Source: a virus (lineage: Duplodnaviria; Caudoviricetes). From it: DNA of 57,251 nt. Below are positions 3,418 through 39,969 of this stretch, one piece after another. The DNA lies in IMG/VR virus record IMGVR_UViG_3300025723_000044, positions 1-57,251 of that record; one strand, given 5' to 3'. Numbering within the stretch: position 1 is the stretch's first letter; each line of letters begins with the position of its first letter. Below the pieces are notes generated by a model that was not told the origin of the DNA, searched no databases, and saw only the letters and a list, made by a program, of their open reading frames with translations. Made by a program: the position numbers and the translations under genes.

Positions 3418-4739
3418 TCTGATTCTCCTTTGGTTGTTTCGTTTGTCTCGGGTGCACAGTCAGGGTGAAACTTATCACCATTGATCTCTACATAGTCAGT
3501 CTCATTGGTGTAGTACTTATCGGTGTGGGTACACATCCAGCAGTTGTCGCGCAACTCATATTGCTCGGTGTCCTCGGCGTAGCAGATGCGGTCGTCATCA
3601 TCGGGGTAGTGCTCGGACTCGCTCTCGATGTAGACCACATCATCAAGATGGCGGTGCTCGCCGTCCACATCACACACGATGTCGTTGTCGGACAGATAGT
3701 CCTCGTCATAGTGCTCGCCGTCAACCTCGACCGAGTAACGATCCCTGATGTAGTACTGATTACCTCTGCGTCCGTAGACATACTGGTAGTCGTTGTCACA
3801 ACAACTCTGGCAGATGTATGTGTCCTCGCTGTAACCGACCCAGTAGCCGTCACCATCATCGAACCCGTCCCCGCAGTCCTCGCAGGTGTGATCGTACTGG
3901 CTACGCTCCTCGGCAAACCCGCCCGTGCTCTCCATGCGGTACTCGCCATCACCATCACAGATCGTGAACGTTTTCTTGTCTGCGCTGTACTTGCAGTCAC
4001 GATCATGACCATCAATGTATGGCCCGATAACATTGCCCTTGTTCTCGATGGCTTTGATCTTGGCGCCGTCCCAACCGCTCACCTTGGCGATGCCCTGATT
4101 CTGCATCCACGCTTCGAGTTGCGTGTCGCTGTGCGAGTACCCGCCGTTCGGGTCTTTGTTGTACGAACGCACAAACGTCTTGTTGCCCGCCGCATCGGTG
4201 TAGACCAAAGCCCGCGCCTTGGTATCGTCCCCTTCCTCACGCACCGCCATCGACCACCCAAGCGCAGGGTCATAGACCTCATAAGGATGCGTGTTCCAGT
4301 TGCTTTCTTTCATACATGATTGTGGCCCCCGCATCAGGTGATGCAGCATCTCGGCCATCGTGTGCACGATCTTGACCCCAGTCACCACATGGAGCGCGGT
4401 GATGTCCCTGATCTGATGGTCACCGAGGGTTGGGAAGTGTCGGCGTAGATACTTGCCGATGGATGTCTTGACTTGGCGATCCGCTTCCCCGCTCTTGTCG
4501 TCACGGGTAAAAGCGATCATGGTCTGATCCGCGATGGCTCGGTGCGGATGCTCAAGCACCAACTGATGCCAGTCATAAGGCCGTGCCAGTATGAGCGCGT
4601 CCGCAATAGCGGGGTGCATCGGGTACTTGTAAAACTCTCGGTGATACCAAGGGCGGGAGCACTTGAGTATCTTTTGGAGCATACGGATGCTATCCTGCAT
4701 TGCCCAACTGTCTTCCATTGTGTATGCGAATGCGTACAT
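3414..4739 (-). CDS. Unknown protein with acidic, Cys-rich (Zn-finger-like) C-terminal half; start 4739 or 4757
   Basis: Long ORF; HPYEVY, ARALVY, FVRSY, GPYID motifs; TCEDC, CQSCC; GAGG RBS before ATG 4739; ATGA coupling to the peptidase. Confidence 0.8.
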   Translation of the reverse strand: MYAFAYTMEDSWAMQDSIRMLQKILKCSRPWYHREFYKYPMHPAIADALILARPYDWHQLVLEHPHRAIADQTMIAFTRDDKSGEADRQVKTSIGKYLRRHFPTLGDHQIRDITALHVVTGVKIVHTMAEMLHHLMRGPQSCMKESNWNTHPYEVYDPALGWSMAVREEGDDTKARALVYTDAAGNKTFVRSYNKDPNGGYSHSDTQLEAWMQNQGIAKVSGWDGAKIKAIENKGNVIGPYIDGHDRDCKYSADKKTFTICDGDGEYRMESTGGFAEERSQYDHTCEDCGDGFDDGDGYWVGYSEDTYICQSCCDNDYQYVYGRRGNQYYIRDRYSVEVDGEHYDEDYLSDNDIVCDVDGEHRHLDDVVYIESESEHYPDDDDRICYAEDTEQYELRDNCWMCTHTDKYYTNETDYVEINGDKFHPDCAPETNETTKGESE

Positions 4740-13069: not shown

Positions 13070-14017
13070 ATGGCAAATGAACCGTACAAGTTCCCTGATG
13101 AAATAGAAGGCGAACAAACAATTGATATCAAGGCGGATGCGCCTGAAATTGAAATTGAAGTTATAGACGACACGCCTATTGAAGATCGTGGCCGTTGGCC
13201 CTTAAACAAGGAAGTCGAAGACCCTACGGATGAAGAAATTGAAAACTACTCCGATAAAGTCAAACACAGGATCAAAGAACTAACGCATGCTAGACATGAC
13301 GAACGTAGATCTAAAGAAGCCGTACTCCGAGAGAAACAAGAGCTTGAGCGTCTTGCACAGCATCTGATTGAAGAGAATAAAAGTCTTAAAAAGAGCGTTA
13401 ACGTCGGCCAGGAAGCGTTCATCTCCTCTTCCAAGGAGAAAGCGGAGGCAGACGTTGCGATGGCTAGACGTCAGTATAAAGAGGCTCAAGAGGCATTTGA
13501 CACTGACGCTATCATTGCGGCGCAAGAAGCCTTGACTGAAGCCAAGTGGAATCTCGAAAAAGTAAAAAATTATCGAGCAACCCCTTTACAAGAGCAAGAA
13601 AATACGGTACAAACTCAACCTAGACAGACTCAATCTGTACAACCAGACGAAAAGTCCCTGCGCTGGCAGGCAAAAAACCAGTGGTTTGGTTCACAGGGGT
13701 TTGAGGAAGTTACCAGCTTTTCACTAGGGCTGCATCAAAAACTAGTGAACTCGGGGATTGATCCTCGCTCTGACGAATATTACGAGCAAATAGATGCTCG
13801 CGTTCGTTCTACGTTCCCAGAAATGTTTGGGGGCGGAGAACAAAAAAGATCTGAGGCCAAACGGCCTTCCAGTGTTGTTGCGCCTGCGTCGCGTTCAACG
13901 ACCGCAGGAAAAGTTAAACTTACAACAACCCAACTTGGGTTGGCAAAAAAGTTTGGATTAACACCACAACAATACGCTATGCAAGTAGCAAAACTGGAGG
14001 CTCAACAAAATGGCTGA
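13070..14017 (+). CDS. Capsid scaffolding protein
   Basis: Acidic N-terminus, long coiled coil, basic C-terminal helix; AAGGAG RBS; position before capsid genes. Confidence 0.7.
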   Translation: MANEPYKFPDEIEGEQTIDIKADAPEIEIEVIDDTPIEDRGRWPLNKEVEDPTDEEIENYSDKVKHRIKELTHARHDERRSKEAVLREKQELERLAQHLIEENKSLKKSVNVGQEAFISSSKEKAEADVAMARRQYKEAQEAFDTDAIIAAQEALTEAKWNLEKVKNYRATPLQEQENTVQTQPRQTQSVQPDEKSLRWQAKNQWFGSQGFEEVTSFSLGLHQKLVNSGIDPRSDEYYEQIDARVRSTFPEMFGGGEQKRSEAKRPSSVVAPASRSTTAGKVKLTTTQLGLAKKFGLTPQQYAMQVAKLEAQQNG

Positions 14018-30003: not shown

Positions 30004-30180
30004 ATGGCAACTAAGTTCATTCAAAAAGCTATCAAACACCCCGGAGCTTTGCGTAAAGAATTGGGCGTTAAAGAAGGCAAAACGATTCCTGCAAAGAAGC
30101 TAGCCGCCGCTGCAAAAAAACCCGGGAAACTGGGGCAGCGTGCGCGGTTGGCCGAAACGCTCAAGGGCTTTAAGAAATGA
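30004..30180 (+). CDS. 58-aa basic protein (not in ORF track)
   Basis: MATKFIQKAIKHPGALRKELGVKEGKTIPAKKLAAAAKKPGKLGQRARLAETLKGFKK; GGAG RBS; ATGA overlap with 30177. Confidence 0.8.
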   Translation: MATKFIQKAIKHPGALRKELGVKEGKTIPAKKLAAAAKKPGKLGQRARLAETLKGFKK

Positions 30181-30371
30181 GCGATACTGAAAAAGACTTA
30201 GCCGTCCACGTTGCCGTATGTGACCAACGCTATCAGCAGATTTCCCAATCCTTAAAAGAAGGGGAGAGGCGCATGACTAAGATCGAGTATTTGATCTATG
30301 CGGTGATGGCAATGGTCATGTTTGGCCCCGGTGTAGCGGCAACGTTTTTTCACAAAGTCTTTGGAATCTAA
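30177..30371 (+). CDS. Small coiled-coil + TM protein (holin/XhlA-like)
   Basis: HVAVCDQRY coiled coil, C-terminal hydrophobic helix; in lysis cassette. Confidence 0.65.
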   Translation: MSDTEKDLAVHVAVCDQRYQQISQSLKEGERRMTKIEYLIYAVMAMVMFGPGVAATFFHKVFGI

Positions 30372-30915
30372 TGGATCCGATCACCATCTTTGCGGCGTGT
30401 AAAGCGGCTCATGCAGGGATTCGTGAGTGCATTGATCTCTACCAAGATTTCAAGAAAGACGGCAAAGAGGTTGGTGATATTGTCAACGATATTGGCAGTC
30501 ACCTTGGTGCGTTCTTTACCCATCAAGAGTCGTTCAAGGAGGCTGAGAAAGAAGCCAAGAAGAACCCTCTACCCAAGAACATCAGCATCAATGAAGAGGC
30601 AATGAACAGAATTCTGCGCCAACAACAGATTGAACAGATGGAGACTGAACTTCGTGAGATGATTATTTATCAGGTTGGGATGCCGGGTCTGTGGTCAAAA
30701 TTCACAGAAATGCGAGAAGTTGTCCGAAAAGAGCGCGAAAAAGTCGAGCGTGAACAAAAAAAGCCCGTGAAGACGCCGATAGAAAAAGGCGTCAATTCAT
30801 TGCAAAGTGGGAGCTTCGGGGCGCGATTTGTGCAGGAATCATTGCGTGGCTCTTGGTCTTTGGCTCGCTTATGTACGGTATCCATCTAGATTACCAAAAG
30901 TCGAAAGGACAATAA
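30371..30915 (+). CDS. Lysis-cassette coiled-coil protein: 172 aa in 0 frame (stop 30889), 181-aa TM-anchored form by -1 frameshift (stop 30915)
   Basis: A_AAA_AAG at 30757-30763 in frame; -1 frame gives AREDADRKRRQFIAKWELRGAICAGIIAWLLVFGSLMYGIHLDYQKSKGQ* abutting the holin ATG. Confidence 0.75.
30757..30799 (+). promoter_or_regulatory. -1 ribosomal frameshift signal (slippery heptamer plus 3' hairpin)
   Basis: AAAAAAG then TGAA-GACGCC...GGCGTC-AA-TTCA stem starting 4-8 nt downstream. Confidence 0.65.
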
Positions 30916-31416
30916 ATGGATTGGCTTAAATCAATTGCACCTACGATAGCTACAGCGCTCGGTGGCCCCCTTGCAGGCATGGCTGTTGAGGCCGTTTCCA
31001 AAGCCATAGGGGTTGACCCTAGTGAAGTTCAAAATGTTATCAGTTCAGGCAAGATGACCGCTGACCAGATTGCCTCGCTCCAAACCGCTGAGATTGCCTT
31101 AAAAGCTCGGGCGCAAGAGATGGGGCTTGACTTTGAAAAGCTGGCCGTTGCAGACCGAGCAAGCGCTCGTCAAATGCAGATGACCACAGGCAGTTTTATA
31201 CCCCCTGCCTTGTCCATTATGATTGTGCTGGCTTGGGCGGCGGTGCAGTTTTTCTTGTTGACCCATGTGATTGAGCCGACCATGCGCGAGCTAATTGCCC
31301 GTGTACTGGGTACGCTTGATGGGGCTTTAATGTTAGTTCTTTCGTTTTACTTTGGCTCATCCAGTGGTTCACAAGCCAAGGACACAATGATCCACAACTC
31401 GACACCCACAAAATGA
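30916..31416 (+). CDS. Holin (3TM GTA-holin-like)
   Basis: APTIATALGGPLAG, DRASAR, two TM helices, SFYFGSS; adjacent to endolysin. Confidence 0.75.
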   Translation: MDWLKSIAPTIATALGGPLAGMAVEAVSKAIGVDPSEVQNVISSGKMTADQIASLQTAEIALKARAQEMGLDFEKLAVADRASARQMQMTTGSFIPPALSIMIVLAWAAVQFFLLTHVIEPTMRELIARVLGTLDGALMLVLSFYFGSSSGSQAKDTMIHNSTPTK

Positions 31417-31847
31417 CTACACTACTCAGCCCCCATTTTTCGCTTGAAGAGCTTACAATTACAGACCACAGGGAGTTTTCAAATGAACCTAATGAATCTG
31501 AAAGACAAAATCTTGTCCGGCTCGCAAACTTTTTGGAACAAGTTAAGTTCGTATTGGGCGGCGTTCCGATCATGGTTAATTCGGCCTATCGATCCGCCCA
31601 AGTGAATCAGGCGGTTGGTTCAAAAGACTCGAGCCAGCATCGAGTGGGGTGCGCGGCTGACCTCCGAGTCCCCGGCATGACCCCAGACCAAGTGGTGCAA
31701 GCCATCATCGGGTCACAGTTAGAATTTGATCAAGTTATTCGGGAGTTCGACCGCTGGACGCATATTTCTGTGCCAAACCACGAAGGCGAAAAGCCTAGAC
31801 GCCAAGCGCTTATCATTGATAAAATGGGCACAAGGAAGTACGCCTAA
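31413..31847 (+). CDS. Endolysin, peptidase M15A family
   Basis: LSPHFSLEEL, VNSAYRS..VN.AVG, SQH..G.AAD, FDQVI.E...WTHIS. Confidence 0.9.
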   Translation: MTTLLSPHFSLEELTITDHREFSNEPNESERQNLVRLANFLEQVKFVLGGVPIMVNSAYRSAQVNQAVGSKDSSQHRVGCAADLRVPGMTPDQVVQAIIGSQLEFDQVIREFDRWTHISVPNHEGEKPRRQALIIDKMGTRKYA

Positions 31848-36971: not shown

Positions 36972-38009
36972 ATGGCAGATACCACAACACCAACAAGTAT
37001 AACGCAGTACCAAACAGGCTTTGCGCCTGAACTTGCTCCGTATGGTCAAGCAATGCTTGGACAAGCCGCGGCATTAACCAATGTAAACACAAACCCTTAC
37101 CAACAGTATCAAGGCGAGACGACTGCGCAATTTAGTCCGTTACAACAGCAAGCGTTCAATAACGCGGCTACGATGCAGACTAATCCCGCTTTGGGGCAAG
37201 CCACTGCCGCCTCGCAAGCCGCTACGCTTGGGGGGCTTAACACCCAGTACACATACAACCCGTACCAGACGCAGAGTTTTACAAGTCCGGGAATGGCTCA
37301 AAGCTACATGAACCCGTATTTGCAAGCATCCCTTGCACCGCAGTTGGCAATTCAACAACAGCAACAAGGCGCGGCACAACAAACTCAAAATGCACAAGCC
37401 GCCCAAGCCGGGGCTTTTGGCGGTTCACGCGCTGGTGTACAGGCGGCGGCTACGGGCCTAAGTAATCAACTTGCCAATCAAAATTTAATTGGCCAAGGCT
37501 ACAACACCGCCTATAACCAAGGCGCACAACAGTTCAATACCGAACAAGGGGCGGGCCAACAAGCGGCTAACCTCAATGCTCAACAAGGCCAGTTTGGTGC
37601 TAATCTTGGACTGCAAGGCTTAAATACAGCGCTTCAGGGAGCTAATACAACTGGCACGCTGGCCAATAATCAGTACAATCAAAACATGGGGATCAATGCC
37701 TTGCAAGCTCAGTACGGTGGCGTACAACAACAGCAGATGCAAAACATTGATAATACCGCACAGCAGAATTTTCTTAACGCTCAGAACTATCCATACCAGC
37801 AGTTGAACTTCATGTCCAACTTGGTTCGTGGTTTACCAATGACTCAGCAATCTGCATCTGTGTATCAAGCACCTCCAAGTACGTTGTCTCAAGTGGCAGG
37901 CGCGGGTTTGACTGCCGCAGCTTTGTTAAAAGCCAAAGGCGGGGCAATTAAAAAATCAAATGGCCTGATGGACTTGGCACTAAAAAAAATGGAGCCTGAG
38001 AATGTTTAA
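36972..38009 (+). CDS. Gln/Ala-rich DNA-transfer (pilot/ejection) protein
   Basis: YMNPY, AGAFGGSR, QNYPYQQL motifs. Confidence 0.75.
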   Translation: MADTTTPTSITQYQTGFAPELAPYGQAMLGQAAALTNVNTNPYQQYQGETTAQFSPLQQQAFNNAATMQTNPALGQATAASQAATLGGLNTQYTYNPYQTQSFTSPGMAQSYMNPYLQASLAPQLAIQQQQQGAAQQTQNAQAAQAGAFGGSRAGVQAAATGLSNQLANQNLIGQGYNTAYNQGAQQFNTEQGAGQQAANLNAQQGQFGANLGLQGLNTALQGANTTGTLANNQYNQNMGINALQAQYGGVQQQQMQNIDNTAQQNFLNAQNYPYQQLNFMSNLVRGLPMTQQSASVYQAPPSTLSQVAGAGLTAAALLKAKGGAIKKSNGLMDLALKKMEPENV

Positions 38010-39969
38010 TGTTCCTCAAATCCAAGCCCGCTTAAAGGGCATGAATCAGCAACAGCTTTTTCAAGAAGGCCAAGCCAATCAGAATGACGCTTTAATGTTT
38101 TCGTTGGTCAACAATGAGAATATGAACCGCCAAAAAGCCAAACAAGCAATGATGGCACAACAAGCAGGCCAGCAGCAGCCACCTGTCAAACAACAAGATT
38201 TGATGGCAATGGCTCCTACTCCTGCGCCTAACATGGGCGCTGGTATCCCTTTGCAAGGTGCTGGTTCTCCGCAACAAATGGGGCAGAACCAACTGCCTGA
38301 AGAACAAGGTATTGGCGCCTTGCCTGCACCAAATTTAACCAAACTGGCGGGTGGCGGTATTACTGGGTATGCGGACGAGGGTCTGGTTAATAAAGATCCT
38401 AAACAAGTGTTTGCTCAGCAATACCAAGGACTTGCTACGCAAGTTGCGCAACAATTGGGTGTTAGTCCCGGCGTTGTTATTGCGCACTGGGGTCAAGAAT
38501 CTGCATGGGGTAAAAAACCTGTTGGCCAGTACAACTTTGGAAACATCAAAGACTTTTCAGGCAAAGGCACTAAAGCGTTTGATAAATCTGAAAAAAGCAC
38601 ATCTGCTTATCGTAACTACGATGATCCACAGGATTTTGCCAATGACTATGTGGATCAAATTAAACGGAATTTTCCAAAAGCTGTTGGCGCGGGTTCGGAC
38701 ATTCGTGCTTTTTCATCGGGCCTACAAAACGGAAGACTCGGACAGTACGCATCTGATGCTAACTACGGCAAACACTTGACAAGTACGTTTAATAGCATCC
38801 TGCCCTTTAGCCCTGCACAAGCGGAAACAGTACCCGGTGCACAACCAAAAGCAACCGCACCTGTTTCTTCAGCATCCATGATACCCGGACAAAGTGTGAA
38901 AGCTCCGGCATATGTGGCGCCACAAAAAGGTTTCTTTGGAAACATGGCGGACAAAATGGGTATTTCTGAAGATACCCAAATGAATCTTGGCAATTTAGCC
39001 AATGCGGCGGCGGGTGCTACGGGCGCTACTTTTATTCCAAGTTATTTGCCTAGAGTAGGGTTAGGTCTTGCCGGATTGGGTGAAAAAATATACAGCAAGT
39101 TTGCGCCTGAAGCAGGTGCAGTTGGTCAAAAAGGTATAGCTGAATTACAAGCGGCAAACAAAGCGGCGCAAGTAGAAAAAGGTGTGCAAGGCGCACAAGA
39201 GGCGGGCTCAACGCTAGAAGAACAAGATTACATCCGTAAAATGATGGAAGCTAATCAGCAAGCACAATTACCCAGCAAGGCGCTTGAACTTCAAAACGCA
39301 TCTACTGTAAGACAGGCTACTGAAGCCGCGCGTATGCTTGAAGGTGCTAATGCCGCTAGAGCCACCGCCGCTGGAACAGCAGGGGTTGCTGATCTTTCAA
39401 ATGCAATGGCGCAACCATCGACACCCACCACCGCACCCGTTGCTTCCACCACAACGCCAAACTACGATGCAATGACGGAAGAAGCCGACAGAGAGTTTGG
39501 GCCTAAACTACAAGGCACGCCTACAGTACCTTCTATAAGTGATATAACCAAAACAGTCACCAAGCCCGAAGGCGGTAGGGACTGGAACGATATGCTGTTG
39601 AATCTTGGCCTTGGGTTGATGGCAGGGCAGTCTCCATATGCTTTACAGAACCTTGGTACCGCCGGTTTGGGCGCTTTGAAAGCAGACCGCGAACAGAAAA
39701 ATCAAGCCATGCAAGACGCGTATTTAAAAGCCAAAACATTGGAGACTATGAACGCCTCTGATCCTGAATGGCTTAAACAAATGGCTGAACTTAAACGTGA
39801 GAAATTTGATCCACTTTCTGCGTACAATCAGTACATTCTTTCTCATCAAAAGCTTGCAGCCACCCCTGGCGCAGAAGTTGGCGCATTAATGAATTACCCT
39901 GATTTTGTTAGGCAGTTTCCAATGGCCACTTCTGCTCCTCCCCAAGGCGCTAACTTACGGGCAAAATAA
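38002..39969 (+). CDS. Ejection protein with GH73 glucosaminidase (FlgJ-like) domain
   Basis: IAHWGQESAWG...YNFGNIK...YRNYDD...YASDANY. Confidence 0.8.
   Translation: MFNVPQIQARLKGMNQQQLFQEGQANQNDALMFSLVNNENMNRQKAKQAMMAQQAGQQQPPVKQQDLMAMAPTPAPNMGAGIPLQGAGSPQQMGQNQLPEEQGIGALPAPNLTKLAGGGITGYADEGLVNKDPKQVFAQQYQGLATQVAQQLGVSPGVVIAHWGQESAWGKKPVGQYNFGNIKDFSGKGTKAFDKSEKSTSAYRNYDDPQDFANDYVDQIKRNFPKAVGAGSDIRAFSSGLQNGRLGQYASDANYGKHLTSTFNSILPFSPAQAETVPGAQPKATAPVSSASMIPGQSVKAPAYVAPQKGFFGNMADKMGISEDTQMNLGNLANAAAGATGATFIPSYLPRVGLGLAGLGEKIYSKFAPEAGAVGQKGIAELQAANKAAQVEKGVQGAQEAGSTLEEQDYIRKMMEANQQAQLPSKALELQNASTVRQATEAARMLEGANAARATAAGTAGVADLSNAMAQPSTPTTAPVASTTTPNYDAMTEEADREFGPKLQGTPTVPSISDITKTVTKPEGGRDWNDMLLNLGLGLMAGQSPYALQNLGTAGLGALKADREQKNQAMQDAYLKAKTLETMNASDPEWLKQMAELKREKFDPLSAYNQYILSHQKLAATPGAEVGALMNYPDFVRQFPMATSAPPQGANLRAK

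Follow-up and report, generated by a model that had tools for sequence, protein, structure and literature searches.

A candidate programmed -1 frameshift that would add a membrane anchor to a lysis-cassette protein of uncultured tailed phages

Among tailed phages, to our knowledge, nearly all programmed frameshifts on record concern tail chaperones or other tail or capsid proteins. The lambda G/GT pair and the T7 capsid proteins 10A/10B are made at conserved -1 sites, giving two proteins in a set ratio. The E/E+E' frameshift of P2 also gives two proteins from one start, and P2-type sites are reported to be usually without a hairpin. For the dnaX gene of Escherichia coli, 14-16% shifting in vitro is reported at the bare site. 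Recoding can also decide whether a transmembrane (TM) region is present, by polymerase slippage in Ebola GP, which yields soluble and transmembrane glycoproteins, and by a -2 frameshift in arterivirus nsp2TF. Here we describe a gene at positions 30371-30889 of the phage record IMGVR_UViG_3300025723_000044, in which a -1 frameshift would add a membrane anchor to a protein encoded close to an endolysin. The window, that is the whole stretch of DNA that was analysed, is the entire IMG/VR virus record of 57,251 bases, with an estimated completeness of 96%, and the features of the gene and its cassette given below lie on the plus strand. The recoding was first proposed in a reading of this DNA from its letters only, which is referred to below as the original prediction.

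The slip site and its two products

The 0-frame open reading frame (ORF) of the recoded gene (30371-30889) encodes 172 amino acids. Its first 131 codons (30371-30763) specify a helical N-terminal domain that would be common to both products, and end in the heptamer A_AAA_AAG (30757-30763). The codons at this point are CAA (30755-57), AAA (30758-60) and AAG (30761-63), which places the heptamer in X_XXY_YYZ phase with the 0 frame, with (30757-30371) mod 3 = 2. Beyond the heptamer the 0 frame runs for a further 41 codons to a TAG at 30887-89 (tail at 30764-30889), its product has no TM helix or other hydrophobic segment and the maximum hydropathy of any 19-mer is 0.89. The -1 frame is shut by a TGA at 30751-53 and is thereafter open for 50 codons, ending in a TAA (30913-15) that abuts the ATG of the next gene at 30916. 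This extension (30763-30915) opens with the charged helix AREDADRKRRQ, continues into a TM helix of 21 residues found in the -1 frame only (30820-30882, maximum Kyte-Doolittle 19-mer 2.12) and finishes with a short tail. There are seven lysine or arginine residues before the TM helix and two after it, and because of this the N-terminal domain of the anchored product is predicted to be cytoplasmic. The original prediction had given the in-frame heptamer, a nondescript 41-residue 0-frame tail, and a -1 frame with the charged helix, the 21-residue TM helix and a stop flush with the next ATG, and each of these was found as it had been described.

A separate small ORF for the anchor was considered and rejected, as no ATG, GTG or TTG occurs in the -1 frame until halfway through the TM helix, and the ORF listing has none of at least 30 amino acids in this frame. 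The lack of such a start codon excludes an independent start as the cause of the conservation of the -1 frame that is described below.

The original prediction had asked whether the run of seven A residues (A7) might be a misread run of eight (A8). Among 122 relatives found by scanning IMG/VR, the best 80 (69-92% identity) were kept, making 81 rows with the window included. All 80 of the kept loci have C or G followed by AAAAAAAG in the identical place, with GAGCGTGA ahead of it. A protein search found 242 relatives among 275 candidates, and the 120 that were listed are all 131-173 amino acids long and all of the 0-frame form; in the rows of these clusters that were compared by eye, similarity reaches ...KK and is then lost in tails that differ in sequence and length. 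The contigs of four runs have no inserted or deleted letters over 30371-31420, and two of them, X1 (806 nucleotides) and X6 (293 nucleotides), span the A7 run with 0 differences, although one of the four runs may be the source sample and rare variants are not visible in contigs. The same A7 run in 80 of 80 relatives, together with contigs free of indels, argues against an A7/A8 error, and it is very probable that the recoding is not an artefact. About a hundred related uncultured phages retain the slip site.

Within the window there are five in-phase A_AAA_AAR heptamers inside ORFs of at least 100 amino acids. A second in-phase A_AAA_AAG (13945-13951) lies near the end of an ORF in the head region (13070-14017, phrog_28737, of unknown function), with 21 codons still to go in the 0 frame and 29 open codons in the -1 frame. 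This could be a capsid-type C-terminal extension, or chance.

Selection, RNA structure and the wider family

The conservation of the gene changes frame at the heptamer. Among 45 unique sequences, the amino-acid identity in the 0 frame is 89% over the 120 nucleotides upstream of the heptamer. In the 120 nucleotides 3' of the site, where the DNA identity is 64%, the -1 frame has an amino-acid identity of 62%, against 36% for the 0 frame and 30% for the +1 frame. The column entropy at the three positions of the 0-frame codon is 0.40/0.11/1.04 upstream, with its peak at position 3, and 0.51/1.35/0.79 downstream, with its peak at position 2, so that the wobble position steps back by one base exactly at the heptamer. 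The -1 frame is open for 50-55 codons in all 81 rows and its peptide (alignment A2) is conserved as A.E.AA.KRRQFI.KW..R, followed by the TM helix and LMYGIHLDYQKSK. The length of the 0-frame tail ranges over 26-41 codons, and this tail is neither conserved nor selected, its 36% identity being like that of the unused +1 frame. The -1 stop touches or overlaps the following start codon (TAAATG or ATGA) in the majority of the 81 rows, as it does in the more distant relatives L149 and L092, and in 25 of the 81 the -1 frame extends about 14 nucleotides into the next gene.

The sequence immediately 5' of the slip site is also conserved. The stretch at 30746-30756, made up of GAGCGTGA and 3 further nucleotides and holding the -1-frame TGA, is invariant or nearly so across the 80 loci. 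Within GAGCGTGA the wobble positions of GAG and CGT have an entropy of 0, compared with about 1.0 for wobble positions upstream, and the element is common to a clade (P0130) whose N-terminal domain is 41% identical to that of the window, and is not kept in a further clade (P0128) that has a run of six A (A6). A role of GAGCGTGA as a Shine-Dalgarno element was dropped, its spacing being wrong for -1 stimulation and CGT being lost in the A6 clade. Contig depth, in which strains are mixed, is highest at 30721-30755.

Downstream of the heptamer is a hairpin (30767-30800) of 11 base pairs with a 2-nucleotide bulge, in which 30767-30777 pairs with 30788-30793 and 30796-30800. It includes the GACGCC/GGCGTC core (30772-77/30788-93) and the TGAA/TTCA extension of the original prediction, and it folds with a minimum free energy of -13.1 kcal/mol (z -4.35), with 0 of 200 shuffles equally stable. 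In a scan of 23 windows of 45 nucleotides, from -315 to +315, the one at +1 to +45 has a mean z of -2.15 over 36 unique relatives, and the 22 others lie between -0.89 and +0.53, these z-scores being non-independent because the sequences are related. In the A6 clade four of five sequences fold with z of -2.0 to -3.4, and the fifth with -1.35.

The wider family was recovered with a profile of the N-terminal domain (alignment A3, mean column identity 89%), which gave 147 matches with E <=0.001 among 1.84 billion representatives. Of 120 representatives that have good coverage of the domain and at most 300 amino acids, 99 carry an in-frame hydrophobic helix after it; nine of the remaining 21 stop matching at ...KK and continue without a helix, and the others look fragmentary. 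The unsplit forms P0127 and L091 have the motifs ...KW..TM..LMYG.HLDYQ in one frame, with a short Cys-containing tail after them and no A-run. As these unsplit proteins carry its motifs in frame, the -1 product is, on this comparison, the orthologue of the normal full-length protein. No unsplit form was found when the -1 peptide alignment was compared with longer proteins, a weak search in which the short queries were crowded out; it was the N-terminal domain profile that recovered them.

Split lineages are found at several distances from the window. The P0130 clade has GAG CGT GAA GAA AAA AAG in all four loci, the P0128 clade (42-44% identical) has GCA AAA AAG in all ten, which is an in-phase heptamer on an A6 run, and L092, L149/L150 and L152 (28-31% identical) have a run of nine A (A9) at the equivalent place, again with the heptamer in phase. 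In each split clade with DNA, that is P0130, P0128 and the A9 lineages, it is the -1 frame that supplies the TM helix. For P0126 and P0157 the split state was judged from the protein alone, and scans of viral contigs for DNA of these two clusters gave no match. Unsplit neighbours (a clade of 179-residue proteins, L093-L148, and L165) have no such heptamer, and split and unsplit clusters are interspersed in one half of a rough FastTree tree of 120 N-terminal domains, read for its topology. A search of the genomes of 185,579 species with the same profile found no relative, and the sole cultured relative found is Limnohabitans phage DC31, with 30% identity and an unsplit gene.

The anchored form has additional features in some lineages. 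In L082 (1889-2173), L149 (3399-3668), L092 (3387-3656) and P0127 it bears a further periplasmic tail, roughly 50 residues long, that contains two Cys (DP..I.CW ... LP..C), and the window's clade is without this tail. In the unsplit 179-residue clade the 3' end of the family gene is overlapped, in a different frame, by a 93-residue ORF with one hydrophobic helix (L093, 3405-3686).

An AlphaFold model of P0127, made with 90 unsplit relatives, has a mean predicted local distance difference test (pLDDT) score of 92.2, with helices at 4-34, 39-72 and 81-109, and then a long helix at 115-190 that passes through the charged segment into the TM region. The slip site maps inside this long helix, about 18 residues ahead of the membrane segment. 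Three helices, a long helix and a C-terminal TM segment give the model a syntaxin-like shape, and the top PDB matches in Foldseek are Habc-like bundles, yet none is significant (E 0.28-0.73, the best being 0.28, TM-score 0.28-0.50), and they are not evidence of kinship or of function. Foldseek against BFVD gave uncharacterised phage proteins only. Residues 1-130 match phrog_32327, of unknown function, and in Pfam, NCBIfam, PHROGs and the ESM Atlas the family protein has only matches that are of unknown function or not significant; family, fold and language-model searches found no match to a holin or antiholin family.

Mechanism and alternatives

The mechanism that we propose is that 131 codons are translated in the 0 frame, after which some ribosomes would slip back by one base on A_AAA_AAG whilst the hairpin resists unwinding. 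Shifted ribosomes would read the 50 codons of the -1 frame to give a protein of 181 residues, tail-anchored in the inner membrane, with a cytoplasmic N-terminal helical domain, a single TM helix and, in the periplasm, a short tail. The remaining ribosomes, which stay in the 0 frame, would make the 172-residue soluble protein, with the same N-terminal domain and the unselected tail of 41 residues. Together the two proteins may influence lysis, for instance by adjusting a membrane step that precedes the release of the endolysin. The alignments establish the site, the frame change under selection and the correspondence between the -1 product and the unsplit relatives, and on the same comparison the full-length form is obtainable in the window's lineage only through programmed -1 recoding. 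What we infer beyond this is that ribosomes, and not RNA polymerase, do the slipping, that the soluble product has some importance, and that lysis is what the pair affects. Taken as a whole, with the ribosomal slip and two isoforms in a lysis cassette, we regard this account as probable.

A number of results weigh against it. The heptamer alone is no more frequent than chance would have it, with AAAAAAG occurring 24 times in the window against 19.7 expected, and chance fails to explain not the heptamer itself but its conservation, the change of frame and the structure beside it. There is no dnaX-like Shine-Dalgarno sequence about 10 nucleotides 5' of the heptamer, only a GAG at 30746-48, 8 nucleotides upstream, with no AGGAGG-like run. 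The A9 lineages are without a hairpin (z -0.74, +0.61 and +0.85), and L082, an A7 member of the P0130 clade, has a z of -0.34. RNAalifold gave no consensus hairpin for the relatives. Of two registers set by hand, the window's own shows pairing in 55% of cells, the alternative one in 73%, and covariation is weak in both. One conserved consensus helix was therefore rejected, and the claim made here is limited to local stability. The A9 lineages and L082 suggest that a different mechanism, or a mixture, operates in some branches of the family. Unsplit genes form the majority of the family, so the soluble isoform is an addition that the core function does not require, and no characterised lysis family matches the recoded protein or its two membrane neighbours. 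Of the features that the original prediction wanted looked for in homologues, the heptamer (80 of 80) and the split frames (81 of 81) are kept, and the hairpin register is not; most of the distant relatives are unsplit. Its core proposal, a programmed -1 event that adds a membrane anchor in a lysis-type cassette, is strongly supported by the comparative evidence, although the mechanism may not be purely ribosomal, as sister clades have A9 runs and no hairpin. Its further suggestion, two isoforms in a fixed ratio that would act in lysis timing in the manner of a holin and antiholin, goes beyond what these comparisons show.

An alternative view of what the shift is for is that it throttles or couples expression, with the rate of slipping setting the amount of anchored protein and, via termination and reinitiation, of the next membrane protein, as only shifted ribosomes would finish at the TAA beside the ATG at 30916, the soluble product being a by-product. 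This is compatible with a ribosomal frameshift mechanism. It would account for a -1 stop that lies so close to the next start in L149, in L092 and in the majority of the 81 rows, and for an unselected 0-frame tail whose stop varies over 26-41 codons. There is also a precedent in MS2, where a frameshift is reported to deliver ribosomes to the start of the lysis gene. However, AAGGA lies 6 nucleotides before the ATG at 30916 and makes independent initiation possible, the -1 frame of 25 of the 81 rows overruns the next start by about 14 nucleotides, and tight junctions are ordinary in phage operons. We consider this reading unlikely, if worth keeping in mind.

Slightly less likely again is programmed transcriptional slippage, in which RNA polymerase adds one A and the resulting A8 transcripts encode the identical anchored protein. 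Sites of transcriptional slippage typically have about nine A or T, and the three related lineages that have A9 at the equivalent place have no downstream hairpin; polymerase slippage fits there, as there is no structure. The window's clade, however, has A7 only (80 of 80) and the sister clade has A6 in phase (10 of 10), both short of a run of about nine, and A6 is short for efficient slippage by the polymerase. Moreover, the structured element sits where a ribosomal stimulator is expected, whereas transcriptional slippage needs neither structure nor codon phase. It is the short run, in phase as A7 or A6, the stable structure only just 3' of it and the structured A6 clade that favour the ribosome in this clade. 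Our estimate for the window's clade is that the slip is probably ribosomal, that a polymerase origin is improbable, and that both may possibly contribute.

Phase variation at the level of DNA would require no recoding at all, with the length of the A-run changing in replication to give a mixture of ON (fused) and OFF (split) genomes. The interspersed split and unsplit clusters in the rough tree do imply that the state has changed several times. Against this, the length of the run is uniform within each split clade (A7 in 80/80, A6 in 10/10 and A7 in 4/4), no variant length is present in the contigs, though contigs drop rare variants, the unsplit relatives are without any A-run, and an OFF genotype has preserved its -1 frame over a long divergence. 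This makes phase variation very improbable. The last alternative, that A7 is an assembly or sequencing error for A8 or a recent deletion that has left a pseudogene, has going for it that homopolymers are error-prone and that one extra A would fuse the frames, and is practically negligible given A7 in 80/80 IMG/VR contigs, contigs of four runs without an indel, 120 listed clusters that break alike and a -1 frame under purifying selection across lineages sharing 28-44% identity.

If the ribosomal frameshift is taken as the mechanism, a further and doubtful step would be a recoding-driven lysis clock, in which the anchored form acts at the inner membrane with the neighbouring membrane proteins and the soluble form competes with it via the shared N-terminal domain. 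Were this true, the efficiency of slipping, through lysyl-tRNA decoding and the load of ribosomes on the hairpin, would link the time at which the cell lyses to the host's translational state, and A6 with a hairpin, A7 with a hairpin, A9 without one and the unsplit gene would be evolutionary settings of the clock.

The lysis cassette and its closest parallels

The window contains terminase, portal, tail-fibre and replication genes and no tRNA genes, and the neighbours of the recoded gene are tail-fibre-like genes upstream and an endolysin downstream. Directly ahead of it is a gene for 64 amino acids (30177-30371), taken from the ORF listing, with one C-terminal hydrophobic helix by hydropathy, whose TAA overlaps the ATG of the recoded gene. 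It has no family match in PHROGs, Pfam or NCBIfam, and a comparable small gene with one TM helix stands ahead of the family gene in L093, L149, L082 and Limnohabitans phage DC31. The next gene (30916-31416) encodes a membrane protein of 166 amino acids with hydrophobic segments around residues 91-121 and 126-144. Its stop codon, TGA, shares bases with the endolysin ATG. The original prediction had called this gene a holin, which its position by the endolysin would suit; the name finds no holin family behind it, as the protein matches phrog_1544, of unknown function (E 2.5e-16), and nothing in Pfam or NCBIfam above the cut-off. The endolysin itself (31413-31847) is a Peptidase_M15_3 protein (Pfam PF08291, E 1.8e-16, 60.6 bits against a cut-off of 23.2) that also matches the endolysin family phrog_894 (E 1.2e-32).

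The order of the cassette is thus a small one-TM protein, the family gene, a membrane protein of 135-170 amino acids (phrog_1544) and the endolysin, and the same order is found in L092, L093, L149 and the cultured phage DC31, where only the endolysin is annotated and the remainder is hypothetical. The recoded gene may have a role in lysis, as may the gene that follows it under the name of holin, and this is a reading from position, gene context being the sole link to lysis.

Two other roles were considered and rejected for the recoded gene. An i-spanin has an N-terminal TM anchor and a periplasmic coiled coil, and here the TM helix is C-terminal and the helical domain is predicted to be cytoplasmic. 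A tail assembly chaperone of the G/GT type was rejected on the neighbours, which are tail-fibre-like genes and an endolysin and not the major tail and tape-measure genes.

The endolysin of the window has no evident pair of spanin-like genes next to it (30177-31847). In the distant relative L152 there are lipoprotein-like small ORFs, with Cys after a hydrophobic leader, 3' of the family gene (3577-3786 and 4304-4543). Elsewhere in the window, in the block of virion-protein genes, a protein of 655 amino acids (38002-39969) matches the endolysin-type phrog_3513 over residues 132-280 (E 1.6e-19), and this segment is probably a virion-borne wall-degrading domain that is separate from the cassette endolysin.

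If the proposed frameshift is true, it would be a widespread and deeply conserved one in a non-structural membrane protein of the lysis region, in which recoding decides whether the protein is anchored. A survey of the literature (including PMC10885494, PMC5009743, PMC3091744 and bioRxiv 10.1101/2025.10.02.679949) turned up no frameshift in a phage lysis-cassette membrane protein, in a coverage that was thin for subscription journals. There is also a consequence for annotation, as gene callers truncate the gene in every relative examined. The lineages with A6, A7 and A9, with and without a hairpin, and the fused forms make up a natural comparative series that would be useful for the evolution of frameshift signals. 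The gene also draws attention to a family of lysis-cassette proteins, so far uncharacterised, that belongs to abundant freshwater phages.

The closest parallel to the signal is the tau/gamma frameshift of E. coli dnaX, which has the same heptamer, A_AAA_AAG, in the same phase, a stem-loop a few bases 3' of it and products that share their N-terminal part. The shift in dnaX truncates the protein after one codon and a Shine-Dalgarno-like element lies about 10 nucleotides upstream, whereas the gene of the window gains 50 codons and a TM helix and has GAGCGTGA there instead. The frameshifts of the phage tail chaperones (lambda G/GT, P2 E/E+E') and of T7 10A/10B are alike in being conserved -1 sites in double-stranded DNA phages that give two proteins per start. 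Those genes are structural, either situated between the genes for tail tube and tape measure or encoding the capsid, whereas the gene described here lies by an endolysin and gains an anchor.

As to what such a pair of proteins might do, the nearest analogy is with S105/S107 of lambda, also a lysis-cassette gene with two products that differ in their membrane behaviour and whose ratio could set timing. The lambda products come from two starts and differ by two N-terminal residues, whereas in the window it is the C-terminus that would be recoded, and no homology between them was found. The other likeness is to Ebola GP and arterivirus nsp2TF; these are found in RNA viruses of eukaryotes and their proteins and signals are unrelated to those of the window, so that the likeness is one of logic only, in that recoding would decide whether a protein has its transmembrane region.

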